DNA of 44,532 nt from Escherichia phage vB_EcoP-CC1. The translations under genes were made by a program, and so were the position numbers. This document shows positions 8,695 to 44,203 of this stretch, piece by piece. The notes under the pieces were generated by a model. The model had not been told where the DNA came from. It saw only the letters and a program-made list of their open reading frames with translations, and ran no database searches. The stretch's first letter is position 1; the number at the start of each line of letters is the position of its first letter. The stretch lies in sequence record OX457022; one strand, written 5' to 3'.

Positions 8695-8730
8695 CCCTAT
8701 CTACCTTGCGTAGGTAGGGTTCTTTTGTTT
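8695..8730 (+). terminator. T-phi-like transcription terminator after capsid gene
   Basis: 10-bp stem CCCTATCTAC/GTAGGTAGGG (one G-U pair), loop CTTGC, then TTCTTTTGTTT. Confidence 0.7.
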
Positions 8731-8740
8731 AGGAGGGTTC

Positions 8741-9481
8741 ATGCCTTTAATTCAAAATACAAGTGATGTTGGACGTATCATGGCTGAGGCTTCCTTCAAT
8801 ATCATTGATAGCAAACTGGAAGCAGTTAACCTGTGTATGCGAGCTATCGGTCGTGAGGGTGTGGATTCCCTTGACTCTGGCGACTTAGATGCTGAAGATG
8901 CTAATAAGATTATTGATATTGTCTCACAACGTTTCCAGTACAATAAAGGTGGTGGTTGGTGGTTTAACAGGGAACCTAATTGGCTGCTTAAACCTGATAC
9001 CAACGGCGAAGTGAATATGCCAAACAATTGCCTTGCGGTACTCCAGTGTTACGCCCTAGGTGAACGTAAAGTACCTATGACTATACGAGCAGGCAAGTTG
9101 TATTCTGTTTGGAATCACACTTTCGACATGTCAAAGTATGTGAATCAGGATGGGCGTATTAGGTTGACTCTGGTAACATTACTACCTTTTGAGCATCTAC
9201 CTGCAAGTGTTATGCAAGCTATTGCCTATCAAGCTGCCGTAGAGTTTATTGTGTCTAAGGATGCTGATAAGACTAAGTTACAAGCACACCAGCAGATCGC
9301 AGCACAGCTTATGATTGATGTTCAGTCAGAGCAGTCTTCTCAGAAGAGACTCAATATGCTTGTACATAACCCTACTCAGCGCAACTTCGGAATCATGGCA
9401 GGTGGCTCACAGAATGTACCAGCATTCTCCTATTCCCCTTATGATACTTACCCTGTAAGGCCGTGGGAGGTTGATCGCTGA
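8741..9481 (+). CDS. tail tubular protein A
   Basis: 246 aa directly after capsid and before large tail tube gene; RBS AGGAGGG. Confidence 0.75.
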   Translation: MPLIQNTSDVGRIMAEASFNIIDSKLEAVNLCMRAIGREGVDSLDSGDLDAEDANKIIDIVSQRFQYNKGGGWWFNREPNWLLKPDTNGEVNMPNNCLAVLQCYALGERKVPMTIRAGKLYSVWNHTFDMSKYVNQDGRIRLTLVTLLPFEHLPASVMQAIAYQAAVEFIVSKDADKTKLQAHQQIAAQLMIDVQSEQSSQKRLNMLVHNPTQRNFGIMAGGSQNVPAFSYSPYDTYPVRPWEVDR

Positions 9482-11886
9482 TGGAAGTGCAAGGCTCATT
9501 AGGTCGTCAGATTCAAGGTATTAGCCAACAACCAGCAGCAGTGCGGTTAGATGGGCAATGTACCGATATGGTTAATATGGTTCCAGATGTAGTCAACGGT
9601 ACACAATCTCGCATGGGGAGTGTGCACATTGCAAAGCTACTGGACTCCGGCAGTGACAATATGGCAACACATCACTATCGAAGAGGCGATGGTGATGAGG
9701 AATACTTCTTTGTTTTAAAGAAAGGTAGTTTGCCGGAAATCTTTGACAAGCAAGGCCGTAGGTGTAATGTGACAACAAGGGATGCTCCTTTAGATTATCT
9801 AAAAGAAGTAGTAAATCCACGAGAAGATGTACAGTTTATGACTATTGCAGATGTCACATTTATGCTGAATAGGAGAAAGGTCGTAAAGACAAGGTCTGCA
9901 CGGTCGCCTAAGATCGGTAACACTGCCTTAGTTTTTAGTGCCTATGGTCAGTATGGGACTACATATCGTATAAAGATTAACAACGTTACAGCGGCAGAGT
10001 ACAGAACTGCAAATGGTGGAGAGGCTAGTGACATTAGTACAATCAGAACCGAAAGGATAGCAAGGGAGTTGTATGAGAAACTGCTCGCTTGGGAAGGTGC
10101 TGCCGATTATAAATTCAGTCGTGATGAGAATGTCATAACCATTAGTACTGTGGACGGTTCTACTGATTTTACTGTATCTACTAATGATGGTGCGAAAGGG
10201 CAAGACTTAGTTGCAATTAAATATAAGGTAACGTCTACTGACCTCCTACCTTCTAGAGCACCCGCTGGTTACAAAGTTCAAGTCTGGCCTACAGGAAGTA
10301 AACCAGAGTCCAGATATTGGCTAGAAGCAGAGAAGAAAGAAGGCAGCTTGGTTACTTGGAAAGAAACCATTGCAGCAGATGTCCTTCTAGGTTTTGATAA
10401 AGCCACAATGCCTTACCTTATAGAGCGCACAGATATTATAGATGGGATAGCGCAGTTCACTATAAGGCAGGGAGATTGGGAAGACCGCAAGGTTGGTGAT
10501 GACCTCACTAACCCCATGCCGTCCTTCATTGATAAAGAGAACCCACAAACTATAGGCGGCATGTTTATGGTACAGAATAGGCTCTGTGTAACAGCAGGAG
10601 AGGCTGTCATAGCTACTAGGACTTCTGCGTTCTTTGACTTCTTTCGCTACTCAGCAGTGGCTAGCGTTGCTACTGACCCGTTTGATGTGTTCTCAGATGC
10701 AAGTGAAGTCTATCAGCTAAAACATGCAGTTACTCTGGATGGTGCTACGGTCTTATTTGCTAACAGGTCGCAGTTTACAATCCCTGGAGATAAAGTACTG
10801 GAGAAGTCAAACATCGTATTACAACCAGCGACCACCTTCGAAGTTGACAACAGGGTTCCTCCTGTGGCAACGGGTGAGTCTGTGATGTTTGCTACTAGTG
10901 AGGGTGCTTACTCTGGTATCCGTGAGTTTTACACAGATTCATATAGCGATACGAAGAAGGCACAGGCTATTACTAGTCATGTGAATAAGTTGATACAAGG
11001 TAACATCACTCACATGGTTGCCAGTACCAATATTAACAGGCTACTCGTGATTACAGACAAAGACCCCAATATCGTCTATTGTTATGATTGGTTGTGGCAA
11101 GGGACAGACCGTGTACAATCCGCATGGCATAAGTGGGTGTGGCCTAAAAATACTCTGATACGATCTATGTTCTACTCTTCGGAGGCTTTGTATCTTCTAG
11201 TAGAAAGAGGCAATACGGGTGTCTACTTAGAGGTGATGGATATGGGGGATGCCCTCACATACGGATTGGTTGATAGGATAAGATTAGATAGGCAGGCAGA
11301 GCTTATCTTTACTTATGACTCTTACAACTCCCAGTGGGTATCAAATCCTTTACCTTGGATACCAACAGACACTACATTGCTAGATTGTGTACTGACCACA
11401 GGGTGGCCTGCTTATATTGGTGGGGCTTTTGGTTTCGAATATGATGCAGGTAGCAACACACTACGGACTACATTTGATTTAGCTGATGAGCAATCTAACG
11501 CTATCGTAGTGGTCGGACAGTTGTATCAACAGGAGTTTGAACCTACGCAAGTGGTTATCAGGGATAATCAAGATAGAGTCTCCTATATAGATGTACCTGT
11601 GGTTGGGTTAGTGCACCTTAATCTGGATAAATACCCTGACTTTGAAGTGCACATTAAGAATTTGAAAAGTGGAAAGGTGCGAAAAGCACTAGCCTCTAAT
11701 CGCAAAGGTGGTGCACTGAATAACATCGTGGGATATGTTAAACCTGAAGAGGGTTCTTTTAAGTTCCCCCTTAGGTCGCTAAGTACCGACACGGTTTATA
11801 GGATAGTTGTCAAATCACCTCACACTTTTCAACTAAGAGATATTGAGTGGGAGGGTTCGTATAACCCAACTAAGAGGAGGGTATAA
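9481..11886 (+). CDS. tail tubular protein B
   Basis: 801 aa, size and position match T7 gp12-type; start overlaps preceding stop. Confidence 0.8.
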   Translation: MEVQGSLGRQIQGISQQPAAVRLDGQCTDMVNMVPDVVNGTQSRMGSVHIAKLLDSGSDNMATHHYRRGDGDEEYFFVLKKGSLPEIFDKQGRRCNVTTRDAPLDYLKEVVNPREDVQFMTIADVTFMLNRRKVVKTRSARSPKIGNTALVFSAYGQYGTTYRIKINNVTAAEYRTANGGEASDISTIRTERIARELYEKLLAWEGAADYKFSRDENVITISTVDGSTDFTVSTNDGAKGQDLVAIKYKVTSTDLLPSRAPAGYKVQVWPTGSKPESRYWLEAEKKEGSLVTWKETIAADVLLGFDKATMPYLIERTDIIDGIAQFTIRQGDWEDRKVGDDLTNPMPSFIDKENPQTIGGMFMVQNRLCVTAGEAVIATRTSAFFDFFRYSAVASVATDPFDVFSDASEVYQLKHAVTLDGATVLFANRSQFTIPGDKVLEKSNIVLQPATTFEVDNRVPPVATGESVMFATSEGAYSGIREFYTDSYSDTKKAQAITSHVNKLIQGNITHMVASTNINRLLVITDKDPNIVYCYDWLWQGTDRVQSAWHKWVWPKNTLIRSMFYSSEALYLLVERGNTGVYLEVMDMGDALTYGLVDRIRLDRQAELIFTYDSYNSQWVSNPLPWIPTDTTLLDCVLTTGWPAYIGGAFGFEYDAGSNTLRTTFDLADEQSNAIVVVGQLYQQEFEPTQVVIRDNQDRVSYIDVPVVGLVHLNLDKYPDFEVHIKNLKSGKVRKALASNRKGGALNNIVGYVKPEEGSFKFPLRSLSTDTVYRIVVKSPHTFQLRDIEWEGSYNPTKRRV

Positions 11887-12611
11887 TGGCGATAATGGCG
11901 ACAGTAGGGTCAAGCCTAGCCAGCATGTTCTCCAGTAGTGCAGGTGCTGCGGCTGCTAGTAGTGCTGCTGGTAGTGCCGCCGCTGGAAGTGGTGGTGTAC
12001 TTGGCTCTATCGGAAGTTTCTTAGGTGGAAGCTCTGCTGGCTTTTCTAATGCAGGTTTGTTGTCTGCTGGACTACAAGGCTTAAACTTACTAGGCGGTCT
12101 ATTCGGTGGACGAGATACCGCTAAGGCTATGCAGAAAGCACAAGAAGAAGAATGGAGACAAAGGCTAGAAGCCACACGTGAAGCCTATTCTTCTGTGGCA
12201 GATGCAGAGCGGGCTGCTGCAAAGCAATATCATTCTGACTTCCTTAGTAATCAAATTTCACTGATGCAGCAACGAGCGCAAGTTGCAGTAATGGCAGGCG
12301 CTACTGGAACAGGTGGTAGCTCCATCACATCCATGCTCAATGATTTGACGGCAGAAGGCGGTCGCAATCAGTCAACCATTATAGATAATTATGAGAATCA
12401 GCAAATCAACTTTGCCAACCAGTTGAAGTCTATTCAACGCAGTGGACAGATGCAGATGCGAACGTTTGACAAACCTTCCGCTTTGGGTACTTTGGTGAAA
12501 GGAATACCAAGCATTGCATCTTCCTATGTCACCGGAAGTAAAGCAGGTATGGCACTTGGCAAGGCTATCACTGAGTCTCGTACTTATTCATCAGGAACTA
12601 GAGGAGTTTAA
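11886..12611 (+). CDS. internal virion protein (gp14-like), Gly/Ala/Ser-rich
   Basis: 241 aa, low-complexity Ala/Gly/Ser N-terminal half; first of three consecutive internal-core genes. Confidence 0.65.
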   Translation: MAIMATVGSSLASMFSSSAGAAAASSAAGSAAAGSGGVLGSIGSFLGGSSAGFSNAGLLSAGLQGLNLLGGLFGGRDTAKAMQKAQEEEWRQRLEATREAYSSVADAERAAAKQYHSDFLSNQISLMQQRAQVAVMAGATGTGGSSITSMLNDLTAEGGRNQSTIIDNYENQQINFANQLKSIQRSGQMQMRTFDKPSALGTLVKGIPSIASSYVTGSKAGMALGKAITESRTYSSGTRGV

Positions 12612-15554
12612 ATGGCAATTGAACGTCAAGCTGTACAAGGACTAGAAAGAGTACAGTCAAGGGGCGCGCCAACACCTATGTCTTTCACACCACGACAAGT
12701 GAGTATCTCAGGGGGCGCGGATGCCTCCGGTAGTAGATTTTTGGAAGACTTAGTAAACGCTGCAAGTAGTGTGGCTGATGTCACTACTGCTATCCTTAAT
12801 CAGCAAGTAGAAGACGATAAGGTTCGCCAGATGGATAGGGCTTTATCTGGCATGATGCCTTCTGAGGATGCTACGGTAGGTGGTGCTCGTGCGCATATGC
12901 TGGTTAGTTTACAAAATGATGTAATCGCACAGACAACTGCGCTACAAGTAGAAGCACAGCGATTTCAAGGTAGTGACGAGGATTGGGAAAACTATGTAGT
13001 TCAATCTCGTAATGAGGTACAAAATAGGTTATGGCAAAGTTATCCAGAGCTTCGTGGTGACAAAGATTCTATGAGACTTGTCACTAACGCGTTCATGGAG
13101 CAGCAACCTAGAATTACTGCAACTAGAGCAGAGGCTAAACTTCGTCAAGAAGAAGAAGCACGAATGCAATCTATGCAGTCTCGTATTATCATGGCTACAC
13201 GGGACGTAGCGCCAGATGCCACTGGTGCAGCACTCATCCAGTTACAAAAAGAAGCACTGGCGATGGGTCTTAGTAAACCTGAGTTTGATCAGATGGTTGC
13301 TAAGATTGCATCTGACAGAGCGGCAGTAGGAGATGATAGTCTTATTCAGGGAACCAAAGCACTGGTGGATGATAAGGGTGTCTCTTTGTATGACCGTGTT
13401 GGTGCTTTGCAAACTGGAGAGATTCAAGCTAACAGAGCTTGGGCTGCGCAGAATCAGGTTGCCCTCTTTGAGAAGAAGGATGCAGCTATAAAGGCATTCG
13501 ATGCAGGGCAACTTACTCGTGAAGAGTTACTTCAGGTGATGCAGAATCACAATGAATTGACTGGTGGTACTGCTTGGTCTGATAGCGAGATCAAGGCTAT
13601 CTTCGATAGGCAAGCTAAGGCTAATGCAGAGAAAGCAAAGCTCGAAGATCTTATTGCACGAGGTGAATCTGGGTCGCCTTTAGGTTTACAGGATATTAGT
13701 AAGGATGACAGAAAATCCTATGCTGAAGCCTTAGTTAGTACCTACACTAAGTTGGCAGAAGATGAAATTGCCCGTACTGGTGCAACGGGAGAACAGGCTG
13801 AAGCTATTCGCGGTAGGTATGAGCAGATGCGTTATCTTAAATTAGGGCAACAACTTATTGAAGACCCAATCATTAAGGAAAGATATTCGTCGCTTATGCA
13901 ATTATCCTCTGCCAACCTTAAAGATATGAATGTTGAGCCTGAAGCATTACAGACCATCATGCGAGCGCGGGACTCTATTCCAGAGGATGCACGTCGTGCT
14001 GTCATGGGAGACAAAGAGTATGCCTTTGTAGAGAACTACGACCTAGCAACTCGCATGGGGTATAACGCAGGTCAAGCTATTGAGTTTGCACAGAATGCCT
14101 CTCGTGGAGAGAAGCTACAAGGTTCTGTACTTAAAGAACTGAATGATGATGTAGATGGAGTTGTAAGTGATGTGGCAGGAGGTAGTTGGCTTACTCGTGG
14201 CGATAATATGAGTGAGATGGGTCGTGACATTATGATGGAGGAGGCAAGTACAATTGCGAGAGCAATGAAGGTTGCAGGTCATAATAATGACACGATTAAA
14301 CGTCATCTTAAATCCTATTTGACGAGCCAGTATACACAGTTATCAGAGGGCTTCTTCACCCAAGGTGTTCTGGTGAAAGGTGATGTACGAACATTAGGTG
14401 ACACTATAGGAGTAAACCAGAATGACCTTCCTATGGCGCTACGTCAATATATGGATAACAACAAGCAAGCACTTCTTGATGCATCAGGTGGCTTAGAAGA
14501 GGGTGATTTGTATTTTGATGTAGATGCGCAGCGGGGACTCTTTACCATACGTGCAGGGTCTGGTCGTGTACCTGTTACGCAGGCAATGCCTTTGTCTGAA
14601 ATCAAAGGGCAGTCCTTGCTTAAGCAAAGATATGATGCAGAGGTTAAAGCCCGTGATGAGGGGCGTAAGAATTTTGAAGCACAGCAAATGAGGATGTGGG
14701 GCGCAGGTGGCTACCAAGCACAACCACCTGCAAAGACTACAGCCAAAACTGTAGGCTCCCGTGGGATTGCTGACTTCTTAATGTCACCTGCCTTTGCATC
14801 AGGCGAGAATCTACCAGCAAACTTTGAGTTTGGATATAAGAGGAATAATATGGACTTCTACAATTATGTAGCCAAGATGGAGAATAATGCCAATGTGGGC
14901 TTTGACCGAGTAGCTGGTGTTTATACACCATACAAAGATGCACATGGTCAATCTGTCGGGTACGGTCACTTCCTTACTACTGAAGAGAAGAAGAACGGAT
15001 ACATTATGATTGGTACAGAGAAAGTGCCATTCACTCCGGGACAATCTCAATTAACACCAGAACGAGCCATGCGCCTTCTACAGCAAGACTTGAAGAGTCA
15101 TGTGCCAAACACTTCAGGGTGGGCTGTTCCATTCGAAGAGATGCACCCAGGTGTTCAGCGTGGCCTTATGGACTTGTCCTATAATTTAGGCAAAGGAGGT
15201 ATCCAGAATGCACCTAAAGCCTATGTTGCGTTTAAGGCTGGCAAGTTTACTGATGGATTTATTGAGATGTTATCTACTGCATCTACTGAAGGTAAGCGTA
15301 GTACTGGGTTGTTGGTTCGTAGAGCAGAAGCATACAACCTTGCACAGAGTGGAGGTGCTATTCCTAAGATTAGTGAAGTAGAGACACGAGCCGATGGGTC
15401 TATGTATGTTAAGTTTGCAGGACAGATGTCAGAGGCTTTCGTAAATAAATCAATCTACAATCAGATTGGTAAGGATGGATGGCTGCAAGTGTACCCTCCA
15501 AAACAAGGTGTACTTGCACCTAACACCAAGATTGGTAGAATCAAACTAAGCTAG
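12612..15554 (+). CDS. internal virion protein with lysozyme-like (T4-lysozyme-type) domain
   Basis: 980 aa; residues ~760-900 contain YKDAHGQSVGYGHFLT, closely resembling T4 lysozyme YKDTEGYYTIGIGHLLT. Confidence 0.75.
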   Translation: MAIERQAVQGLERVQSRGAPTPMSFTPRQVSISGGADASGSRFLEDLVNAASSVADVTTAILNQQVEDDKVRQMDRALSGMMPSEDATVGGARAHMLVSLQNDVIAQTTALQVEAQRFQGSDEDWENYVVQSRNEVQNRLWQSYPELRGDKDSMRLVTNAFMEQQPRITATRAEAKLRQEEEARMQSMQSRIIMATRDVAPDATGAALIQLQKEALAMGLSKPEFDQMVAKIASDRAAVGDDSLIQGTKALVDDKGVSLYDRVGALQTGEIQANRAWAAQNQVALFEKKDAAIKAFDAGQLTREELLQVMQNHNELTGGTAWSDSEIKAIFDRQAKANAEKAKLEDLIARGESGSPLGLQDISKDDRKSYAEALVSTYTKLAEDEIARTGATGEQAEAIRGRYEQMRYLKLGQQLIEDPIIKERYSSLMQLSSANLKDMNVEPEALQTIMRARDSIPEDARRAVMGDKEYAFVENYDLATRMGYNAGQAIEFAQNASRGEKLQGSVLKELNDDVDGVVSDVAGGSWLTRGDNMSEMGRDIMMEEASTIARAMKVAGHNNDTIKRHLKSYLTSQYTQLSEGFFTQGVLVKGDVRTLGDTIGVNQNDLPMALRQYMDNNKQALLDASGGLEEGDLYFDVDAQRGLFTIRAGSGRVPVTQAMPLSEIKGQSLLKQRYDAEVKARDEGRKNFEAQQMRMWGAGGYQAQPPAKTTAKTVGSRGIADFLMSPAFASGENLPANFEFGYKRNNMDFYNYVAKMENNANVGFDRVAGVYTPYKDAHGQSVGYGHFLTTEEKKNGYIMIGTEKVPFTPGQSQLTPERAMRLLQQDLKSHVPNTSGWAVPFEEMHPGVQRGLMDLSYNLGKGGIQNAPKAYVAFKAGKFTDGFIEMLSTASTEGKRSTGLLVRRAEAYNLAQSGGAIPKISEVETRADGSMYVKFAGQMSEAFVNKSIYNQIGKDGWLQVYPPKQGVLAPNTKIGRIKLS
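14392..14413 (+). promoter_or_regulatory. promoter-like sequence inside coding region (CATTAGGTGACACTATAGGAG)
   Basis: Matches SP6-type consensus better than this phage's class I promoters; lies inside the 980-aa gene (codons GDTIGV); function unproven. Confidence 0.3.
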
Positions 15555-15570: not shown

Positions 15571-15588
15571 TGTCTCACATGTGAGACA
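15571..15588. repeat. 18-bp perfect palindrome TGTCTCACATGTGAGACA
   Basis: 16 nt after stop of 980-aa gene; member of palindrome family; flanked by AAGG...CCTT. Confidence 0.9.
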
Positions 15589-22400: not shown

Positions 22401-22508
22401 CTTCGTAGAGAAGAGCTGATGTGGTGGTGCATGAAGGCACAGAATGCTTGGATTGAATCTATTGAGGGGAGGCTGGCGAAATTAGAAGATAAACTCAAGG
22501 AGGTGTAA
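19422..22508 (+). CDS. tail fibre/tailspike with T7 gp17-like N-terminal attachment domain
   Basis: 1028 aa; position of T7 gene 17 and N-terminal region loosely resembles recalled gp17 attachment domain (no motif checked); C-terminal CDARLKTDARELTDAEKSAF resembles S74 intramolecular-chaperone motif; probable depolymerase body. Confidence 0.8.
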   Translation: MMSYTYTDHVANGSQVTFPFRFAGRDKAYISATDVQVGFVEAGTWLPATGWTLSGTNQITFLTPPTEGKQIRIRRIVDKINPYAYFERGNVLDINSLNNSFIKNLQVSQEILDGFFPEGFYFKTDLDMGGHKIINLHEGSESGDAVNYDQFKELSDRVNEIESDLTGLSHRTVPMYYIATGGESRWEIGHWTFDAAILFINGIFQNQNLGAFTISNNGFNFAEPLQKGDEVYALVGSRIAAPDEYVTISDLKDPDKAWRLIGRKYPFATDGTFMSKVVHDVDYSNIFIGASGLSQGFCIVDTPQGARMFFHQPIPSTNKVRFVETTFNPEGDNENPSVISFSQELDDIGHQTVCGVYEAGGVRLYTLSADEKSYYIIDWLGNNTSNAHMRKVQIPTEGIYSKDLFVSVGMSEDTKTLVFHATTNTQAFGNKDDARAIYLFDRKTLDSTSTRGLKRRFEVGAPAAPDMVFQGVACDDRFLYIYQGYNGVLLSHKISVFTLSGEHVRDIPVDSVRVKYGERMYGDETLGYPVLQEPEGLAMYKGKLYMLCMDFWYKNASVVTFAGRTFATRKSSAFSGYSPLQASYWTPTNLIPPTGAPEYNKTATYSCSNATKLSKAIVSLEIDDGTGFPASVGCSLPESSASVYLNNRAMNMAIGPNENFQFGVFHQNLQSYKNLLQLNRENPNTDGSAAVWRLFGGAFTDDIQNERFVQIKHRLNPTQDAMELRADVDLTSGGGINLYSMNDSASPGRVRLYCTDGYSYWSALLSPVSPSFHPDQDKTLNLGTANNRWNLVHCQGIRIISNDELQKQVFLETTRKKGALQISTSGNLGVWDSSAGTYVVATRPDGTGFSQVEMSFKGDVFPEINNTYNLGRENKAWANAYFQNAPTVVCDARLKTDARELTDAEKSAFLEISKLPAVWQWLAKLEVEGEDARLHSGCTVQAAISVMEKHGLDWTKYSAFCYDKWDAKEAVYDIVDGKAILVEEAVEAGDRYRLRREELMWWCMKAQNAWIESIEGRLAKLEDKLKEV

Positions 22509-22702: not shown

Positions 22703-22985
22703 ACATGCAGCCACAGAGGATGAAGTAGGCATCCTTCATGGCGCTATTACGAAGATGTTTAATAAGAAAGCACAGGCTATACTGGACACTATAGAAGAAG
22801 ACCCTGATTCTGCTATGCACTTAGTGTCAGGTAAGGATATTGGAGCCATGTGTAAGTGGGTTTTAGATAATGGCATTACTGCAACCCCTGCTGCACAGCA
22901 GGAAGAATCTAAGTTGTCTAAGCGTCTCAAGGCTATCCGAGAGGCGTCCAGTGGTAAGATCATTCAGTTTACTAAGGAGGATTAA
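22686..22985 (+). CDS. terminase small subunit (gp18-like)
   Basis: 99 aa from ATG 22686 (GGAGGA upstream); immediately precedes terminase large subunit. Confidence 0.55.
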   Translation: MSVHNKHAATEDEVGILHGAITKMFNKKAQAILDTIEEDPDSAMHLVSGKDIGAMCKWVLDNGITATPAAQQEESKLSKRLKAIREASSGKIIQFTKED

Positions 22986-24880
22986 TGGCTAAGGCAAGAG
23001 AATCACAAGCGGAGGCTCTTGCCAGATGGGAGATGCTACACGAGTTACAGCAGACCTTCCCTTATACGGCAGAAGGTTTGCTTCTCTTTGCTGATACAGT
23101 TATTCATAATTTAATTGCAGGTAGTCCTCATCTGATTCGTATGCAGGCAGACATCTTGAAGTTCCTATTCTATGGGCACAAGTATCGCCTCATCGAAGCG
23201 CCCCGTGGTATCGCTAAAACTACGCTGGCAGCAATCTATACGGTGTTCCGTATCATTCATGAGCCTCATAAGCGTATCATGGTTGTATCCCAAAACGCCA
23301 AGCGAGCAGAGGAAATTGCAGGTTGGGTGGTCAAAATCTTCCGAGGATTGGACTTCCTTGAGTTTATGCTACCGGATATATATGCTGGCGACCGTGCATC
23401 CGTCAAGGCATTTGAGATTCACTACACGTTACGCGGCAGCGATAAGTCGCCTTCTGTATCCTGTTACTCTATCGAAGCAGGAATGCAGGGTGCTCGTGCT
23501 GACATCATTCTAGCAGATGACGTTGAATCTATGCAGAATGCGCGTACAGCAGCAGGTCGTGCATTACTTGAGGAACTGACAAAGGAGTTTGAATCTATCA
23601 ACCAGTTTGGTGATATCATCTACCTTGGTACACCTCAGAACGTCAACTCAATCTATAATAACCTTCCGGCTCGTGGTTATTCCGTGCGCATCTGGACTGC
23701 TCGCTATCCTTCGGTAGAACAGGAGCAATGCTATGGTGATTTCCTTGCACCTATGATTGTGCAAGATATGAAGGATAACCCAGCATTGCGAACAGGCTAT
23801 GGTCTGGATGGCAACAGCGGCGCTCCTTGTGCGCCTGAAATGTACGATGATGATGTCCTGATTGAGAAGGAAATCTCACAGGGTGCTGCTAAATTCCAGC
23901 TTCAGTTCATGCTTAACACTCGCATGATGGATGCTGACAGATACCCATTGCGCCTAAACAATCTAATCTTCACCTCATTTGGTACAGAGGAAGTCCCTGT
24001 GATGCCTACGTGGAGTAATGATTCCATTAACATCATTGGGGATGCACCTAAGTATGGCAACAAGCCTACAGATTTCATGTATCGACCTGTGGCACGTCCA
24101 TACGAATGGGGTGCTGTTACACGCAAGATTATGTATATTGACCCCGCTGGTGGCGGTAAGAACGGAGATGAGACTGGTGTAGCCATCGTATTCCTGCACG
24201 GCACATTCATTTATGTGTATCAGTGCTTTGGTGTACCGGGCGGATACCGAGAATCTTCCCTGAATCGCATTGTGCAGGCCGCAAAGCAGGCAGGGGTTAA
24301 AGAGGTATTCATAGAGAAAAACTTTGGTCATGGCGCGTTTGAGGCGGTAATTAAGCCATACTTTGAACGAGAGTGGCCTGTGACACTTGAAGAGGATTAC
24401 GCAACTGGTCAGAAAGAACTCCGCATCATTGAGACGCTAGAGCCATTGATGACCGCGCATAGGCTCATCTTCAATGCGGAAATGGTTAAGTCAGATTTCG
24501 CTTCAGTACAGAACTACCCGCTTGAACTGCGGATGTCTTATAGTCTGTTCCATCAAATGTCGAACATCACTATTGAGAAGAACAGCCTTAGGCATGATGA
24601 CCGCTTAGACGCTCTGTATGGCGCTGTGCGTCAATTAACTTCCCAGATAGACTATGACGAGGTTACTCGAATTAATCGCCTCAGAGCGCAGGAGATGCGC
24701 GATTATATACAGGCGATGAATACACCTAAACTTCGTCGGGCTATGCTGTACGGCGATTATGGTGATGAGCGAAGAACAACCAACACCTCCTTAGCGATGC
24801 AGCAGCGGGTTTACGGTCAGAATTGGAGGAGCCGCTCTGGGTCTAGAAATACACTTTCCTCAAGGATTTCAAGGATTTAG
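22985..24880 (+). CDS. terminase large subunit
   Basis: 631 aa, position and size of T7 gp19; no nucleotide-binding motif could be confirmed by eye. Confidence 0.85.
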   Translation: MAKARESQAEALARWEMLHELQQTFPYTAEGLLLFADTVIHNLIAGSPHLIRMQADILKFLFYGHKYRLIEAPRGIAKTTLAAIYTVFRIIHEPHKRIMVVSQNAKRAEEIAGWVVKIFRGLDFLEFMLPDIYAGDRASVKAFEIHYTLRGSDKSPSVSCYSIEAGMQGARADIILADDVESMQNARTAAGRALLEELTKEFESINQFGDIIYLGTPQNVNSIYNNLPARGYSVRIWTARYPSVEQEQCYGDFLAPMIVQDMKDNPALRTGYGLDGNSGAPCAPEMYDDDVLIEKEISQGAAKFQLQFMLNTRMMDADRYPLRLNNLIFTSFGTEEVPVMPTWSNDSINIIGDAPKYGNKPTDFMYRPVARPYEWGAVTRKIMYIDPAGGGKNGDETGVAIVFLHGTFIYVYQCFGVPGGYRESSLNRIVQAAKQAGVKEVFIEKNFGHGAFEAVIKPYFEREWPVTLEEDYATGQKELRIIETLEPLMTAHRLIFNAEMVKSDFASVQNYPLELRMSYSLFHQMSNITIEKNSLRHDDRLDALYGAVRQLTSQIDYDEVTRINRLRAQEMRDYIQAMNTPKLRRAMLYGDYGDERRTTNTSLAMQQRVYGQNWRSRSGSRNTLSSRISRI

Positions 24881-35325: not shown

Positions 35326-35357
35326 AGGCCATTCCTTAGGGAGTGGCCTTTTCTTTT
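35326..35357 (+). terminator. intrinsic (rho-independent-type) terminator after RNAP gene
   Basis: Stem AGGCCATTCC/GGAGTGGCCT (one G-U), loop TTAG, then TTTTCTTTT; candidate early terminator. Confidence 0.7.
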
Positions 35358-37958: not shown

Positions 37959-37996
37959 GGCTCTTATTAAGTACATTAAATAACTGGAGATTGATT

Positions 37997-38719: not shown

Positions 38720-38729
38720 GGAGTTAATC

Positions 38730-38918: not shown

Positions 38919-38939
38919 TTGGCAGCTTTATGGTGAAAC

Positions 38940-39137
38940 ATGCAAAATAAACATAGCCTTAAGATGTTTGATGGTCACGAAGACCTGCAAGCACAAATTA
39001 CCAACCAAGCCTTCCTGTTTGCACAGTTAACTATGGCTGAAGCAAAGAAGAACAGCCTTACTCGTGAGCAGATTATCAAGGAAGGTAGCCGTGGTGCTAC
39101 TCGTCGTACCAAGAACCACAGAAGTGGTGCTCGCTAG
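38940..39137 (+). CDS. hypothetical protein (65 aa)
   Basis: ORF only; weak RBS. Confidence 0.35.
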   Translation: MQNKHSLKMFDGHEDLQAQITNQAFLFAQLTMAEAKKNSLTREQIIKEGSRGATRRTKNHRSGAR

Positions 39138-39153
39138 TCGATAAGTCAAGGGT

Positions 39154-39171
39154 TGTCTCACGTGTGAGACA
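39154..39171. repeat. palindrome family member TGTCTCAC-GT-GTGAGACA
   Basis: 17 nt after preceding stop; flanked by AAGGG...CCTTT. Confidence 0.9.
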
Positions 39172-39201
39172 GCCTTTCATCATATTGATTGGAGGTGCAT
39201 T

Positions 39202-39309
39202 ATGCCACGTGATTATGATTCTGATTGGGACTACTATGACTCAATGAATCCAAAACCCGAACGTTCAGATGATTACTACGAAACAGAGGCAATGTATGAA
39301 AACTATTGA
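39202..39309 (+). CDS. hypothetical small acidic protein (35 aa)
   Basis: Below ORF-track cutoff; GGAGGTG RBS; Asp/Tyr-rich; overlaps DNA polymerase start. Confidence 0.4.
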   Translation: MPRDYDSDWDYYDSMNPKPERSDDYYETEAMYENY

Positions 39310-41842
39310 TTGGAAGAAGGAAGCAGAAGGCCGCATCCTCGTCATGGACGCAGAAGCTAAAGGTCTGCTTGATGCTATCCGCTACGGTCATCGTGAAGAT
39401 GTACACATCATTTGCTGCATGGACTTGCTCACCACTGAGGAGTTCCTCTTCTTCGACCCATATGAGATGCGTGACCCTGAAGCAAGAGAACGCCTGAAGG
39501 AGTGGGAAGGCCATCAAGATGGTGACTTGGTTGACGGTGTTAACTTCCTGAAACACTGTGAAGCTATCGTGTCACAGAACTTCCTAGGGTATGACGGCCT
39601 CCTTTTTGAGAAAGCCTTCCCTGATATCTGGAAAGGTTTTAACTATACCGAAAGGCGCGGCAAGGGCAGACTCCGTGCCGACCTGTGTCCTGTGCGAGTC
39701 ATGGACACGCTGGTGATGAGCCGCCTGTTAAACCCCGATAGACGCCTTCCTCCGCAAGCATATGCCAAAGGTATGGGTAACGTCGCCCCTCATTCAATTG
39801 AGGCGCACGGCATCCGTATAGGACGCTATAAGCCGGAGAATGAGGACTGGTCTAAACTAACTGACCACATGGTTCACCGTGTCCGCGAGGACGTGGCAAT
39901 CGGTCGTGACCTTTTCCTGTGGCTGTACAATGGAGAGTGGACGGAGCATAAACGCCGTGGCGTGAATAAACGCACTGGCCTAGGCATTGAGACAGCCTTC
40001 CACATGGAGTCTATTGTGGCGCTGGAGATGAGCCGTCAGGCAGAGCGTGGATTCCGTCTGGATATTGACAAAGCACTAGCGCGATGCGAAGAACTGGACG
40101 CTAAGATTGATGAGACAGTCGCAGCGTTCCGCCCTCACATGCCTATGCGTATCAAGTCTAAACCTTTTAAACCGGAAGAAAAGAATGAAGTATGCCAACG
40201 CGCAAATGAGTATGGAGCTAGCAACAATATACCTACTGTCCTTGACCCCTCACACTTTCTTCATGCCGAGAGACGAGGAGATCGCAAGACAGTATGGAGT
40301 GTCACTACTAAGTCTGGTGATTGGTCGGCTAGCGTCAAGAAAGACTTTCCTCACCTTAGAGGAAACCGTAATGACACGCCAAGCATCAAGTGGATTGGCG
40401 CTTACTCGCCTGTTACTTTCGAAGAGATTCCCTTGGGTAACAGGGATACAGTTAAGCAAGTGCTCTATGATTATGGATGGAAAGGTGTTGAATTTAACGA
40501 TACCGAGCAAGCGCATCTCGATGAGCATGGCGTATTACCCAAACCTTGGAGTGGAAAGATAAATGAGAAATCCCTTACTTTATGGCAAGAAAGAGCCGCA
40601 CGTGAAGGTAAAACAGTACCAGATTGGTGCTTGGGTATCGCTGCATGGTACATACTCGTATCCCGTCGTGGTCAGATCCTCAACCGTGGTGACGTTGAAG
40701 CCTTCGATCAGAAGGGGGCGTGGCCTTCGCAAGCTGGTGTACGAAAGTGTCGCGGCCTTATACCTGTAGCCTTTAACAAGGAATTAGGAATCAATGCGCA
40801 ACAATACTACGAGAGGTATGGGTATTGGCCTACGTCTGACAAGGATGACGGAGAGTGGCGTGTGCCAGCTATTGCTATTAGTATTGGCACTTCTACGTTC
40901 CGTATGCGTCATCGCAATGTGGTTAATATTCCTGCCCGTGGCTTGTATCCTTTACGTGATTTATTCATAGCAGGTAAAGGTAAGCTAATCCTTGGTTGTG
41001 ATGGTGCAGGTCTTGAACTACGTGTACTTTCTCACTTCATGAATGACCCTGAGTACCAAGATATTGTACTGCATGGCGATATACATACTCATAACCAGAT
41101 GAAGGCGGGTCTTCCTAAGCGTGATATGGCGAAGACATTTATATATGCCTTCCTTTACGGCTCTGGTATAGCTAACCTTGCAGCAGTGTGCGGTGTTACT
41201 GAGGAAGAAATGAAGGAAGTTGTGGCAAGATTCGAGATTGAATTACCATCCCTTGCACGTCTTCGTGAGAATGTTATCGCACAAGGCAACAAGTTTGGAT
41301 ACTTACAAGCACCTGACGGGCATTGGGGTCGCATCCGTATGTCTGGTGGAGAACTTAAAGAGCACACTATGCTTAATGTATTACTCCAAATGACTGGCTC
41401 TTTGTGTATGAAATACGCATTGGTCAAAGCGTTTGCAGTGATGCGCAAGGAAGGTGTGGCCTTAGATAGTATGGGACACCCTTGTGGTGTAGCTAACGTG
41501 CACGATGAAATCCAGATGGAAGTACCTGAAGAAGAGGTATTGTATCTTAACTACGACCTACCTTTCACCTTAGAGGGGTTTGAAACAGAGAAGGCTGCTG
41601 TGAAAGCAGTATTCGATGCAGAGGAGAAACGTGTTCATGTGGATTCTGAAGGACGTATGTGGTCTGCTGCAAATCTCATTAGTGTTGATGCTGCTGCTGG
41701 TGTACTTCATTGCCAGCGTCGTTATCACCGCGCAGGGCATATCATTGCCGACGCCATGACTTGGGCTGGTCAGTATCTGAAGATGCGTTGCCCGATGGCA
41801 GGCGAGTATAAGATTGGCGCAAGCTGGAAGGAAACGCACTAG
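39296..41842 (+). CDS. DNA polymerase (family A, T7 gp5-like)
   Basis: 848 aa from ATG 39296 (ORF track 39269); polymerase-type motifs incl. HDEIQMEV; position after primase-helicase. Confidence 0.9.
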   Translation: MKTIDWKKEAEGRILVMDAEAKGLLDAIRYGHREDVHIICCMDLLTTEEFLFFDPYEMRDPEARERLKEWEGHQDGDLVDGVNFLKHCEAIVSQNFLGYDGLLFEKAFPDIWKGFNYTERRGKGRLRADLCPVRVMDTLVMSRLLNPDRRLPPQAYAKGMGNVAPHSIEAHGIRIGRYKPENEDWSKLTDHMVHRVREDVAIGRDLFLWLYNGEWTEHKRRGVNKRTGLGIETAFHMESIVALEMSRQAERGFRLDIDKALARCEELDAKIDETVAAFRPHMPMRIKSKPFKPEEKNEVCQRANEYGASNNIPTVLDPSHFLHAERRGDRKTVWSVTTKSGDWSASVKKDFPHLRGNRNDTPSIKWIGAYSPVTFEEIPLGNRDTVKQVLYDYGWKGVEFNDTEQAHLDEHGVLPKPWSGKINEKSLTLWQERAAREGKTVPDWCLGIAAWYILVSRRGQILNRGDVEAFDQKGAWPSQAGVRKCRGLIPVAFNKELGINAQQYYERYGYWPTSDKDDGEWRVPAIAISIGTSTFRMRHRNVVNIPARGLYPLRDLFIAGKGKLILGCDGAGLELRVLSHFMNDPEYQDIVLHGDIHTHNQMKAGLPKRDMAKTFIYAFLYGSGIANLAAVCGVTEEEMKEVVARFEIELPSLARLRENVIAQGNKFGYLQAPDGHWGRIRMSGGELKEHTMLNVLLQMTGSLCMKYALVKAFAVMRKEGVALDSMGHPCGVANVHDEIQMEVPEEEVLYLNYDLPFTLEGFETEKAAVKAVFDAEEKRVHVDSEGRMWSAANLISVDAAAGVLHCQRRYHRAGHIIADAMTWAGQYLKMRCPMAGEYKIGASWKETH

Positions 41843-42026
41843 TGGATAGATTAGATATTGTTTGCTTGTTCTTTACCTTCTTTCTTGTCTTTCTTATGCT
41901 TGCTTGTTATGGAAGTATTCAGGTAAATATACCTGATGAAGAGGAAGGATACGACTGAGTTATACTCAAGGTCACTTACGAGTGGCCTTTATGAATAACT
42001 TACTCCTACTTATTTTGTCTAACATG

Positions 42027-42048
42027 ATTTACTGGACACTATAGAAGG
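42027..42048 (+). promoter_or_regulatory. phage RNAP promoter class I (ATTTACTGGACACTATAGAAGG), +1 G at 42044
   Basis: Exact consensus downstream of DNA polymerase gene. Confidence 0.85.
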
Positions 42049-42103
42049 AAAGCCTAGGTAATCTAGGTTTATAAGGTAGTATAGGTAATTAAGTAAATAT
42101 AGG
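42046..42103. repeat. periodic AGG array (AGG at 42046, 42056, 42065, 42074, 42083, 42101)
   Basis: AT-rich TAGG/TAAGG units at 9-10 bp period in leader of 125-aa gene. Confidence 0.8.
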
Positions 42104-42113
42104 AGATATAAAT

Positions 42114-42491
42114 ATGTCTATGGTAACTACTCTGGTATTCGTAGCTCAATACTTTCGTGGCCTGGCTAATAAGTTTAAACAGAAAGCAATCTTTGCAATT
42201 CAAGAACGTATTAATAAAATTGAAGAAGAACAAGTAGATGTAGAGGAACATCGTAGTTCTCAGATGATTGACCTGCATAATCGTCTGTACAAAGATCGTG
42301 ATGAGATGCGTCACCGTCATGCGAAGGAAGTTGAAGACATGCTTAACCGCCATGCGGAAGAACAAGCTAAGTTGGAAACCACTTTCCATGAGGATAAACG
42401 TAGCATCGCTCTAGCACATCAAGCTGCATCGGATAGCCTGAAGAAAGAGATTGTTATGCTGGAGATTGAGTTAGACAATCTTACCAAATAA
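42114..42491 (+). CDS. hypothetical coiled-coil protein (125 aa)
   Basis: RBS TAGGAGA; charged heptad-like sequence through most of the length. Confidence 0.55.
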   Translation: MSMVTTLVFVAQYFRGLANKFKQKAIFAIQERINKIEEEQVDVEEHRSSQMIDLHNRLYKDRDEMRHRHAKEVEDMLNRHAEEQAKLETTFHEDKRSIALAHQAASDSLKKEIVMLEIELDNLTK

Positions 42492-42511
42492 TTACTGGAC
42501 ACTATAGAACA
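42490..42511 (+). promoter_or_regulatory. phage RNAP promoter (AATTACTGGACACTATAGAAC), +1 G at 42507
   Basis: One mismatch from class I consensus (A for T at -16); overlaps stop codon of preceding gene. Confidence 0.7.
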
Positions 42512-42653
42512 ATAGGTCGGCTTAGTTCGGCCTATGATTGTAAAGTGTTGAACCTTATTGTGCATCTTGCACAACCCGATACCGTATCGGGCTTTCTAGT
42601 GAGTACATGCTTGTGCTCAGTACAAAGCTAACTGACAATAGGAGACTAAATAA

Positions 42654-43460
42654 ATGGCACGTGGTGATTTTGATTTTGGTGCTCAAGTTACTAAAGCTGA
42701 AGGTAAAGTATTTAAGAACCCAGAAGTAGGTGATCATGAAGCAGTTATCTCTGGCATCATTCATGTTGGTTCCTTCCAAGACATCTTTAAGAAAGGTAAT
42801 ACCACTGAAGTTAAGAAGCCAGCAAACTTTGTTCTGGTTAAGATTATCCTGATGGGTGACGATGACAAGAACGAAGATGATTCTCGCATGGAACAATGGA
42901 TGGCTGTGCCTCTGAAGTCTGGTGATAAGGCAACACTGACTAAGTTCCTGAATGCAGTTGACCCTAAAGAATTGCTTGGTGGCTTCGATGACTTCATTGG
43001 TGAATGCCTGACTGCAACCATGGTTGGCTCTGGTGATAAGAATGACGATGGCTCATTCAAGTATGTTAACTGGAAGGGCTTTGGTGGTATGCCGGAAAAG
43101 CTGAAGAAACTTGTAATTGCTCAGGTTGAAGAAGAAGGTCTGTCTATGACAGGTCACATTACCTTTGACAAGCTGACCAAAGAAATCCTTGATGATATTC
43201 CTGCTAACTTGGTACGCCAATACTTCCTGAATGAAACACCTCGTGGTAAGAACCTGTCTGTTGCTGGTTCTCACGTAGAAGAAATCATTAAAGCTGCTCG
43301 TGAAGAAGACCCAGAATGGAAGAAGGCTAAGAAGAAAGATGATGAGGATGCTACTCCAGCTAATCGTAAGTCTCTGGATACTGGCGAGTCTGTTCCGCAG
43401 GAAGTGCCTGAAGCAGAAGACGCACCTGCACCGGAAATGGATGAAGACGCGGAATACTAA
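42654..43460 (+). CDS. hypothetical protein, possible ssDNA-binding protein (gp2.5-like by features)
   Basis: 268 aa in replication module; acidic C-terminal tail ending in aromatic residue (EMDEDAEY) like the T7 gp2.5 tail; RBS TAGGAGA. Confidence 0.5.
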   Translation: MARGDFDFGAQVTKAEGKVFKNPEVGDHEAVISGIIHVGSFQDIFKKGNTTEVKKPANFVLVKIILMGDDDKNEDDSRMEQWMAVPLKSGDKATLTKFLNAVDPKELLGGFDDFIGECLTATMVGSGDKNDDGSFKYVNWKGFGGMPEKLKKLVIAQVEEEGLSMTGHITFDKLTKEILDDIPANLVRQYFLNETPRGKNLSVAGSHVEEIIKAAREEDPEWKKAKKKDDEDATPANRKSLDTGESVPQEVPEAEDAPAPEMDEDAEY

Positions 43461-43469
43461 GGAGGGATG

Positions 43470-43688
43470 ATGAAGGTACAAATCGTAACCCTGCACTGCA
43501 AGAAGGGCATTACAACCCTTGGCGGAAACACTTTTCACTCCTTCTCTGAAGGGGAGACATATTCTGACCTGCACTACATCTGGCGCGATGGGCAGCACGT
43601 GGTGAACTACAGCGACCCCGCTACAGGGAAACGCCACGGCGTATCTCTTCCGGCGCACGACATTGCTCAGGTGAACACAGTTTTATAA
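43470..43688 (+). CDS. hypothetical protein (73 aa)
   Basis: Strong RBS TAAGGAGGG. Confidence 0.5.
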   Translation: MKVQIVTLHCKKGITTLGGNTFHSFSEGETYSDLHYIWRDGQHVVNYSDPATGKRHGVSLPAHDIAQVNTVL

Positions 43689-43689
43689 A

Positions 43690-43705
43690 GTCTCACATGT
43701 GAGAC
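43690..43705. repeat. palindrome family member GTCTCAC-AT-GTGAGAC
   Basis: Starts 2 nt after preceding stop; 15 nt upstream of promoter 43721. Confidence 0.85.
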
Positions 43706-43720
43706 AAATCGGTGTCCAGT

Positions 43721-43742
43721 ATTTACTGGACACTATAGAAGA
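43721..43742 (+). promoter_or_regulatory. phage RNAP promoter class I (ATTTACTGGACACTATAGAAGAG), +1 G at 43738
   Basis: Exact consensus 55 nt upstream of 122-aa gene. Confidence 0.85.
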
Positions 43743-43792
43743 GAAGAATTTTAATCGGCGATAATGCCATAACTAACAAAGGAGAATTTAAT

Positions 43793-44161
43793 ATGTTCAA
43801 GATTGAAACTATCGTAAACCGTGTTGTTAAAGGTGCTGCTCTGGTGTCCGTTGAATCTTTCATTATCGTCGATGAAGCTGATCAACTGGTAGCTGGCACT
43901 AAGGCTTACGATACCCGTGAAGAAGCTCAGGCTAAGATTGACAGCATGGGTAACTTTGCTGCTGGTCTGGAGTTCGCTCGTGCTTGCTTCCCTGAGCAGG
44001 CTGACAAAGCACAGATTGGTAAGGCTAATATCGTAGCTGAATATCTGGATTGGGTTGCTGCTGGTAAACCAGTGAAAGAAGCTAAGGCTGAAGAAGCTGA
44101 AGCTCCTGCAGTAGAAGAAACCAAAGCAGAAGAAGCTCTGTCTGCTGAAGAAGAATTTTAA
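43793..44161 (+). CDS. hypothetical acidic protein (122 aa), own promoter and terminator
   Basis: RBS AAAGGAGA; net charge about -12; C-terminus AEEEF; monocistronic unit. Confidence 0.65.
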   Translation: MFKIETIVNRVVKGAALVSVESFIIVDEADQLVAGTKAYDTREEAQAKIDSMGNFAAGLEFARACFPEQADKAQIGKANIVAEYLDWVAAGKPVKEAKAEEAEAPAVEETKAEEALSAEEEF

Positions 44162-44167
44162 TTGATG

Positions 44168-44203
44168 CCCTGTCTGCCTTAGTGTAGGCAGGGTCTTTTG
44201 TGT
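44168..44203 (+). terminator. T-phi-like terminator (paralog of 8695-8730)
   Basis: Stem CCCTGTCTGC/GTAGGCAGGG (two G-U pairs), loop CTTAGT, then TCTTTTGTGT; compensatory changes relative to the 8695 copy. Confidence 0.7.

Follow-up and report, generated by a model that had tools for sequence, protein, structure and literature searches.

The closest described counterpart of the elements analysed here is t5 of phage SP6, a class I terminator located after SP6 gene 32 (gene 31 in Scholl numbering). SP6 RNA polymerase (RNAP) terminates at t5 in vitro with an efficiency of 85.3 +/- 2.2% and at nearly a single site (Song et al. 2024, PMC11347151), and the purified polymerase alone suffices for this (PMC11347151); for T7 RNAP, termination at SP6 t5 amounts to 16.2% (PMC11347151 supplement). 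The promoter that was paired with t5 in that study, P8, is the one upstream of the SP6 capsid gene. With reference to Scholl 2004 and Dobbins 2004, the same paper cites seven SP6 RNAP terminators (PMC11347151). The second system for comparison is Tphi of T7; efficiency is partial in both cases, 54% for T7 RNAP at Tphi and 85% for SP6 RNAP at t5 (PMC11347151). The stretch of DNA analysed here (44,532 nucleotides; the window) is the permuted genome of an SP6-like coliphage (Vectrevirus), whose RNAP shares 85% identity with SP6 RNAP. It contains two similar hairpins followed by U-tracts, one after the major capsid protein gene (site 1) and the other after a gene for a 122-aa protein (site 2). These are already known terminators, as site 1 is SP6 t5 and both sites are annotated as putative terminators, predicted by ARNold, in the near-identical phage R4596. 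In our view both are very probably partial, hairpin-dependent (class I) terminators of the phage RNAP, which boost two monocistronic units and permit some read-through. What has been shown directly is the sequence and fold of the elements, their covariation and synteny as well as the identity of one of them with a terminator measured in vitro.

Terminator 1 (8694..8720, + strand) begins 9 nt past the stop codon of the capsid ORF (7486..8685, + strand, 399 aa; taken from the ORF list and the annotation in related records). The site reads ATG-GCCCTATCTAC-CTTGC-GTAGGTAGGGT-TCTTTTGT; its arms (8694-8704 and 8710-8720) form 11 pairs, including a G·U at the base of the stem and U8700·G8714, around the loop CUUGC (8705-8709), and the stem is followed by the U-tract UCUUUUGU (8721..8728, + strand), the tail of which is kept in orthologs. 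Window positions 8684-8736, which cover the hairpin, the U-tract and the ribosome binding site (RBS) of the next gene, are identical to SP6 DNA at 53 of 53 nt and equally to the published SP6-B oligo, which contains the 't5 class I terminator' (53/53 nt). Site 1 and t5 also agree in position, as both lie in the gap between the capsid and tail tubular protein A genes, downstream of equivalent promoters; while the element itself shows no difference, its setting is an E. coli Vectrevirus with a polymerase 85% identical to that of SP6. With this identity, the published termination at t5 and the similarity of the polymerases, the initial annotation of site 1 as a terminator is effectively proven. 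Because site 1 is base for base SP6 t5, which has already been measured in vitro, the finding is correct but ordinary. In R4596, the site-1 region gives the same covariance-model match as in the window, and the terminator annotation of MK373771 includes site 1 as well as site 2 (at 14871-14896).

Terminator 2 (44167..44194, + strand) starts 6 nt past the stop codon of the 122-aa ORF (43793..44161, + strand), a homolog of SP6 gp20 (gene 18 in the Scholl record AY370673 and in K1E). Its letters are ATG-GCCCTGTCTGC-CTTAGT-GTAGGCAGGGT-CTTTTGT, and the arms 44167-44177 and 44184-44194 form 11 pairs, three of them G·U, around the loop CUUAGU (44178-44183); the U-tract CUUUUGU (44195..44201, + strand) and a conserved leader follow. 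The extents given initially for the two hairpins with their tails (8695-8730 and 44168-44203) were right to within 1-2 nt. Hairpin and U-tract of site 2 are identical to those of its ortholog after SP6 gp20, and over an aligned region of 101 nt the two phages differ in the flanking coding parts and, outside of these, at a single base located immediately downstream of the U-tract. The seven terminators cited for SP6 RNAP probably include this ortholog. The site-2 region of R4596 shows 100% identity to the window, and in the PM93 record the equivalent of site 2 is annotated as a putative terminator. From sequence comparison, the interpretation of site 2 as a terminator is supported by the hairpin, the U-tract, compensatory changes in relatives and the layout of the unit, and we infer that termination occurs here as well. 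In the literature we found no termination measurement for site 2, nor for either site in this phage, and no in vivo 3'-end or transcriptome data for SP6-like phages; neither of the two GenBank versions of the SP6 record nor the K1E record contains terminator features.

RNA folding, by which the proposed terminators were to be checked, predicted a stable fold on the + strand at both sites: in a 61-nt context the energies were -19.9 kcal/mol (site 1) and -19.2 kcal/mol (site 2), with z-scores of -2.0 and -3.4, respectively, compared to -12.2 and -9.8 kcal/mol for the - strand. The hairpins alone fold with -15.9 (site 1) and -17.8 kcal/mol (site 2). The helix is specific to the sense RNA because the wobble pairs have their U in the 5' arm and their G in the 3' arm. 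The U-runs 3' of the stems (UUCUUUUGU and UCUUUUGU) contain four consecutive U's and are interrupted by a C, and orthologs keep the tail pattern (C/A)UUUUG. In a consensus scan each site ranked first among the terminator-like matches of its own region. Both sites thus combine a stable, GC-rich hairpin on the sense strand, an adjoining U-run and compensatory substitutions, the characteristics of class I terminators. Class II signals (ATCTGTT plus a U-run, as in PTH, rrnB T1 and the concatemer junction) likewise act on single-subunit phage polymerases and depend on a downstream U-run, but in contrast to them the elements described here are structured and their pairing covaries. The motif ATCTGTT, which in class II signals is conserved on the non-template strand 6-8 nt ahead of the stop point, is absent from both sites, their 5' arms containing TATCTAC and TGTCTGC; it occurs seven times elsewhere in the window, a number not exceeding chance expectation.

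When the two sites are compared with each other, 32 of 38 aligned columns are equal, with four substitutions and two one-base indels. As noted in the initial annotation, two of the differences lie in the stem and keep the pairing, namely a double change of the A-U pair 8699-8715 to G-C (44172-44189) and a half change of the A-U pair 8703-8711 to G·U (44176-44185); the flanks are common to both sites, with ATGCCCT being exact on the 5' side and the shared tail TCTTTTGT being shifted by one T. Taken alone, one compensatory change in a comparison of two sequences gives weak support to an RNA structure, and it is the set of orthologs that makes the argument from covariation solid. Among 37 distinct orthologous sequences 96.7% of cells are paired in an alignment built to fit the structure of the model, a procedure that favours pairing, compared to 35-62% when the 3' partners were slid out of register as a control. 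Double changes occur in six of the 11 stem pairs (43 cells), and none of 500 shuffles reached the observed covariation score. The mid-stem U·G wobble is kept in 30 of the 37 distinct sequences. Hairpins were found at the two syntenic positions in 33 and 22 IMG/VR loci, and at both positions also in SP6, PM93, PP1 and an Edwardsiella phage. The site-2 terminator is not universal, since in Klebsiella phage F5M1D this position is taken by a different hairpin, which lacks a U-tract. Curated Rfam families had no match at or above the gathering threshold anywhere in the window.

The claim that each hairpin closes a promoter-to-terminator unit was borne out, as each is preceded by a single gene and one copy of the SP6-type promoter ATTTACTGGACACTATAGAAG. 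The 21-mers at 7414..7434 (+ strand, upstream of the capsid gene) and 43721..43741 (+ strand, upstream of the 122-aa gene) are identical and both located 72 nt from the respective ATG. The former is syntenic with SP6 P8 (SP6 22413-22433), and judging from the SP6 consensus its transcription start would be G7431; the latter has a syntenic promoter in SP6 at 14286-14306. Downstream of site 1, the tail tubular protein A gene (8741-9481) has its RBS (AGGAGG, 8731-8736) directly past the U-tract. The next promoter-like matches are located at 14392 (off-consensus and within an ORF) and then at 22777, so that the genes in between need read-through. At site 2, a conserved leader and an RBS separate the U-tract from the next ORF (44226-44519), which belongs to PHROG 10319 'DNA repair protein'. 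At both sites, conservation within the neighbourhood is highest in the block formed by terminator and leader.

The preferred mechanism would thus work as follows. The strong SP6-type promoter 72 nt upstream would start transcription of a single gene, capsid or gp20-like; past the stop codon the nascent RNA would fold into the 11-bp hairpin, the 5' arm of which is rich in C and U and the 3' arm in G, and at the subsequent (U)CUUUUG most polymerases would be released. With termination being partial, read-through RNAs would carry the downstream genes, whose RBSs are located 3-20 nt past the U-tract, i.e. those for tail tubular proteins A and B at site 1 and a small ORF together with exonuclease/endonuclease genes at site 2. 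The net outcome would be a short, hairpin-capped monocistronic mRNA in large excess over the downstream message, an arrangement that follows the logic of T7 phi10, gene 10, Tphi and genes 11-12 and would be employed twice in this genome. Both the partial read-through in vivo and the stoichiometric purpose of the arrangement are inferred from these features.

In this respect both sites resemble Tphi, and their description as T-phi-like holds for the architecture of both and for the position of site 1, whereas a sequence relationship to T7 Tphi was not found: a covariance model (R2) run with filters off against T7 22800-24500, which contains Tphi, gave no match with E up to 10. The elements have in common with Tphi of T7 and T3 the succession of hairpin, U-run and G, the position after the capsid gene with no promoter before tail tubular A and, within the stem, a base made up of a C-run and a G-run, G·U pairs and a C+U-rich 5' arm. 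The order promoter, capsid, terminator, tail tubular A applies to site 1; site 2, in contrast, is located in the DNA-metabolism region. The stems are shorter and less stable (11 bp and -16 to -18 kcal/mol, compared to about 15 bp and -22 to -24 kcal/mol in Tphi), and the U-run is short, broken by C or A and weaker, while T7 Tphi has six U's. In addition, T7 has a single RNAP terminator, whereas the SP6 clade has a second copy after a small gene of the DNA-metabolism region.

Several other functions are conceivable for these hairpins. They might primarily address the host E. coli RNA polymerase as Rho-independent terminators, with any effect on the phage polymerase being secondary; a GC-rich stem followed by a U-tract fits this, and ARNold, which called both sites in R4596, predicts bacterial Rho-independent terminators. 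However, both sites are located downstream of phage-polymerase promoters and far from the early sigma-70 region, a separate strong hairpin terminator follows the RNAP gene (35326-35349), and it is SP6 RNAP that stops at the identical site-1 sequence with 85% efficiency, which makes a main role for the host enzyme very unlikely. In phages of the T7 group many hairpins serve as RNase III sites, and whatever its main function, a hairpin at the 3' end would make the capsid and 122-aa mRNAs more stable. Yet it is highly improbable that the elements act as processing or stability signals, be it as RNase III-type sites or as barriers to 3' exonucleases, as perfect 11-bp stems with a conserved U-tract represent terminator anatomy and purified polymerase alone stops at the site-1 sequence in vitro. 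RNase III hairpins of the T7 group have irregular stems that span about 20 bp or more and contain an internal loop, and they do not require a U-tract; the hairpins studied here do not belong to this class. A role of the inverted repeats at the level of DNA, as a cruciform, protein site, replication or packaging signal or recombination boundary, might be suggested by the conservation of the site-2 terminator-leader block (0.87-0.98) next to a hypervariable downstream ORF (0.02-0.48) at a mosaic boundary. This we consider the least probable explanation, with hardly any likelihood: on the opposite strand, C·A mismatches take the place of the conserved U·G wobbles, covariation retains RNA-type pairs including G·U, and as DNA the same stretches fold weakly on either strand (about -6 kcal/mol), on the basis of which a DNA-level hairpin or cruciform was rejected as the main role. 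Termination by the phage RNAP is the most probable function of both elements. The terminator-leader block is also better conserved than the genes flanking it.

A different question is why the two terminators are so similar. Their designation as paralogous is plausible, in that a covariance model built from site-1 orthologs alone, without any site-2 sequence, has site 2 as its only other match in the window (E about 6e-5), but duplication is inseparable from convergence or gene conversion on this basis. It is quite possible, though not probable, that the likeness results from convergence, or from gene conversion occurring repeatedly, under the sequence requirements of the SP6-clade polymerase; both sites would still be terminators, but the term paralogous would be wrong. 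In PP1 and the Edwardsiella phage, the most distant relatives, the two sites share the stem base GCCC/GGG(C/U) and the tail and not the upper stem or loop, and tails tend to agree within a genome (CTTATTTTTG at both Edwardsiella sites, (T)ATTTT at both PP1 sites and likewise (T)CTTTTG at both sites of the window). Proteus phages have a TTAAT loop and G-C at pair 6 at both sites. The distance between sites is 10.4 within genomes and 11.4 across genomes (permutation p 7e-4, uncorrected for relatedness), a weak signal of concerted evolution. On the other hand, in the SP6/K1E/K1-5 group the likeness reaches into the start of the loop (CUU) and the upper stem, which vary freely in distant orthologs, and the signatures at pair 6 (A-U versus G-C) are stable over most of the clade; these stable, site-specific signatures argue against frequent conversion. 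Nothing points to duplication of the cassette in its entirety: although promoters and spacing agree, the 5' UTRs show no relationship outside the RBS.

Beyond partial termination at the two sites, the elements could belong to a signal family specific to the polymerases of the SP6 clade, with exactly two copies per genome, although we think this unlikely. Features marking such a family may be a GCCC(U/C) stem base, a U·G wobble at pair 7 with hardly any variation, a 5' arm rich in C and U and the tail (C/A)UUUUG, and coevolution may link its two copies to one another as well as to the RNAP. Abortive transcripts rich in purines (GAAGGG, GAAGAG), produced at the SP6-type promoters, might adjust its termination efficiency in trans. 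An effect of abortive transcripts on termination has been reported for T7 phi10 and Tphi (PMC2952870); by eye, the pairing of GAAGGG with CCCU or CCUU is limited to about 4 nt, and abortive-transcript antitermination at both sites is speculation. If such a family existed, its second copy would mark the acidic 122-aa protein as being made at capsid-like levels and, thus, as a leading candidate for a host-takeover or replication factor produced in abundance.

The coliphage keeps the transcription plan of SP6, and what is gained is mainly good annotation: the terminator of the capsid gene is the exact sequence already serving as the model SP6 class I terminator, and the clade sets a small gene apart as a one-gene promoter-terminator cassette with a second copy of the terminator type. 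The two naturally occurring versions of the hairpin, which differ in the stem by one double and one half compensatory change, represent ready-made substrates for studying the terminator requirements of SP6-type polymerases. The product of the small gene has no Pfam match, belongs to PHROG 4429 ('unknown function') and gave no match in a sequence search of the PDB; among its 204 homologs all names shown are 'hypothetical' or 'uncharacterized'. AlphaFold models reached a pLDDT of 43 from the single sequence and of 64 with an alignment of 32 sequences, and Foldseek searches of PDB and BFVD with the model returned no informative match, the only one being an uncharacterised Pseudomonas phage protein. 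The 122-aa protein is predicted to consist of three consecutive beta strands and helices, followed by an acidic, disordered tail that ends in EEEF.

The hairpin and U-tract that follow the major capsid gene (site 1, 8694-8728) correspond to a terminator that has already been characterized. Bases 8684-8736 of the window, spanning the hairpin, the U-tract and the ribosome binding site, match at every base the SP6-B oligo of Song et al. (Nucleic Acids Res 2024, PMC11347151), who studied in SP6 'the t5 terminator of class I', located after the capsid gene; the promoter they fused to t5, P8, precedes the capsid gene in SP6. Termination at t5 was 85.3 +/- 2.2% with SP6 RNAP and 16.2% with T7 RNAP, at nearly a single site, and seven SP6 RNAP terminators were cited from the SP6 genome papers (PMC11347151). 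Site 1 is thus a terminator because it is identical to a measured one, and we infer the same for site 2 (44167-44201, after the gene for a 122-aa protein) from the anatomy of the element, its conservation and the family it belongs to. A single base, immediately 3' of the U-tract, separates site 2 from its SP6 ortholog, and our literature search found no measurement of termination efficiency at site 2. Both sites are annotated as ARNold terminators in the GenBank record of the near-identical phage R4596, a terminator is annotated at the site-2 position of Proteus phage PM93, and in UAB_Phi78 terminators have been placed at the SP6 positions, behind the capsid gene and behind genes of unknown function (PMC4837284). 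The two elements, one of them a published model terminator, are therefore already known, and the initial annotation, which had read them as terminators, was correct in its observation and essentially right in its interpretation.

The site 1 RNA, AUG-GCCCUAUCUAC-CUUGC-GUAGGUAGGGU-UCUUUUGU (stem 8694-8720, + strand), begins 9 nt past the capsid stop codon, and the site 2 RNA, AUG-GCCCUGUCUGC-CUUAGU-GUAGGCAGGGU-CUUUUGU (stem 44167-44194, + strand), 6 nt past the stop codon of the 122-aa ORF. They match in 32 of 38 aligned columns, and their stems differ by three bases: the pair A8699-U8715 of site 1 is G-C in site 2, with both sides changed, and A8703-U8711 is G·U, with one side changed, exactly as had been described. 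The predicted fold is stable at both sites in the sense RNA (-19.9 and -19.2 kcal/mol in context for sites 1 and 2, respectively); the antisense RNA reaches -12.2 and -9.8 kcal/mol. The bare hairpins fold at -15.9 and -17.8 kcal/mol, compared with -22.3 for Tphi, the T7 late class I terminator after gene 10, and in a simple terminator scan each ranks first in its own region.

Each hairpin closes a promoter-to-terminator unit, as had been proposed. Among the thirteen copies of the SP6-type promoter core in the window, two identical 21-mers (ATTTACTGGACACTATAGAAG, starting at 7414 and 43721) each lie 72 nt upstream of the ATG of a single gene, which is followed by the hairpin; the 5' UTRs downstream of them are otherwise unrelated. 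Beyond site 1 there is no promoter-like match until 14392 (off-consensus and within an ORF), followed by one at 22777, so the tail and internal-virion genes depend on read-through. The ribosome binding site of tail tubular protein A starts 3 nt 3' of the site 1 U-tract. Both elements most likely act on the phage polymerase as hairpin-dependent terminators of class I: a strong promoter would drive a single gene, the stable 3' hairpin would end most transcripts and a minority would continue into downstream genes, such that partial terminators would set expression ratios.

An inverted repeat, GTGTCCAGTA-TT-TACTGGACAC (43712-43733), overlaps the promoter of the 122-aa gene, so that the upstream half of this promoter forms part of a palindrome of 9 bp, which is present only partially at the capsid promoter. 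A further palindrome, GTCT(C/A)AC-NN-GT(G/T)AGAC, occurs in eight copies on the + strand (starting at 15572, 30043, 35393, 35574, 36374, 37942, 39155 and 43690), six of them perfect, and flanking bases often lengthen the hairpin to about 12-14 bp. None of the eight has a good U-run; at least three (35393, 35574, 43690) are followed by a phage promoter within about 20 nt, and at least one apparently corresponds to an ARNold 'terminator' in R4596. They may be processing sites, weak terminators or operators.

Conservation was assessed in IMG/VR loci retrieved with capsid homologs (33) and with homologs of the 122-aa protein (22), and in the whole genomes of R4596, SP6, PM93, Pectobacterium phage PP1, Klebsiella phage F5M1D and an Edwardsiella phage. 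Almost all carry a hairpin with U-tract at both syntenic positions, the signature being nearly always CCCUA.../...UAGGG at site 1 and CCCUG.../...CAGGG at site 2; these site-specific signatures are old. Distant members show compensated stem changes (CCCC/GGGG, CCCUCUCC/GGGGAGGG, CCCUGUCUCG/CGGGGCAGGG). We built a covariance model from 20 representative sequences; it found exactly two matches each in the window and in the genomes of R4596, SP6, PM93 and PP1. In the Edwardsiella phage both syntenic positions were matched weakly, and there was one additional match. Among 55 matches (37 distinct sequences), standard pairs occupy 96.7% of cells, a somewhat flattering value because the alignment was fitted to the model, compared with 35-62% when the 3' partners were slid by 1-3 columns; the raw sequences plainly show the same compensations. 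Six of 11 pairs changed on both sides (43 cells), 30 of the 37 sequences have U·G at stem pair 7, and none of 500 shuffles reached the covariation score. The covariation thus supports a functional RNA structure, as the initial annotation had argued from the two copies.

The terminator-leader blocks are more conserved than the flanking coding sequence. Conservation across the window and the orthologous positions in loci L035-L056 is 0.87-0.98 over terminator 2, its leader and the first codons (ATGCCGACTATT), and the ORF just 3' of the terminator (44226-44519) is hypervariable in these loci (column identity 0.02-0.48); the terminator block marks a boundary of mosaicism or recombination. At the site-2 position of F5M1D (vB_KvaP_F5M1D, L060 16470-16545), the gp20-like gene is followed by a different 11-12 bp hairpin, GGGTCATTGAGG...CCTCAGTGACC, with no U-tract, so not all members of the subfamily carry the second terminator. 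Locus L054 (IMGVR_UViG_3300045988_000861) contains an extra ORF of about 145 codons (1880-2320) between the gp20-like gene and the terminator, which is kept downstream; by eye this ORF looks like a putative HNH homing endonuclease. Many K1E-type relatives have a 58-nt spacer at this place.

Other readings of the hairpins fit less well. A class II signal is rejected by the absence of the ATCTGTT motif at both sites, and RNase III sites are unlikely because these stems lack the necessary length and irregularity. Structure at the DNA level would have to rest on a fold of only about -6 kcal/mol on either strand, and the wobble pairs are strand-specific. Nothing in the whole window matched an Rfam family. 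Within the class I terminator reading, the C+U-rich 5' arm shared with T7 Tphi raises the matter of antitermination, since G-rich abortive transcripts were reported to act in T7 by pairing with this arm (PMC2952870). The promoters of the window start with GAAGGG or GAAGAG, with only about 4 nt of complementarity to the 5' arm by eye, and such a mechanism therefore stays speculative here.

The two hairpins had also been called paralogous and T-phi-like. A second covariance model (R2), built from site 1 orthologs alone and run with filters off against both strands of the window and the T7 Tphi region, had site 2 as its single match apart from site 1 itself (27.9 bits, E about 6e-5) and matched neither Tphi nor the other terminator-like hairpins of the window. 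The two sites thus share a sequence-and-structure family distinct from Tphi; they may have arisen by duplication. The likeness to T7 holds for the hairpin architecture and, at site 1, for the layout of the unit, which the annotated T7 record shares (phi10, gene 10, Tphi, gene 11). Sites 1 and 2 are alike only in the stem base and tail in PP1 and the Edwardsiella phage. Tails and loops tend to agree within one genome. The distance between site 1 and site 2 is slightly smaller within than across genomes (10.4 versus 11.4; permutation p 7e-4, ignoring relatedness), which weakly suggests concerted evolution or co-adaptation to the polymerase.

The window is a circularly permuted SP6-like genome (Autographiviridae, Molineuxvirinae), as judged from its identities to Vectrevirus phages, R4596 and SP6. 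Over the capsid region it shares 100% identity with Escherichia phage vB_EcoP-CC2, 96-99% with other Vectrevirus phages and 83.5% with K1-5, and over the site-2 region 100% with vB_EcoP_R4596 and 83% with SP6. Its 875-aa RNA polymerase and SP6 RNAP are 85% identical, and all long ORFs are on the + strand. Bases 1-127 are identical to bases 44406-44532; the window is an assembly that is circularly permuted and overlaps at its ends, rather than the natural linear genome with its terminal repeat.

The 122-aa protein (43793-44161), whose gene is isolated by site 2, is a homolog of SP6 gp20; like the capsid gene (399 aa, 7486-8685), this gene has its own consensus promoter and terminator. The protein had no match in Pfam, PDB or fold searches and no function could be assigned; it is predicted to consist of a three-stranded sheet and helices with a disordered acidic tail ending in EEEF, and an imperfect tandem duplication of 39 nt lies in the part of the gene that encodes the tail (44070-44108 and 44109-44147, 72% identical). 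Another protein, of 268 aa (42654-43460; PHROG 862, unknown function), has an acidic C-terminal tail (...DEDAEY), which may resemble the acidic, aromatic-ended C-terminus of the T7 gp2.5 single-stranded DNA-binding protein.
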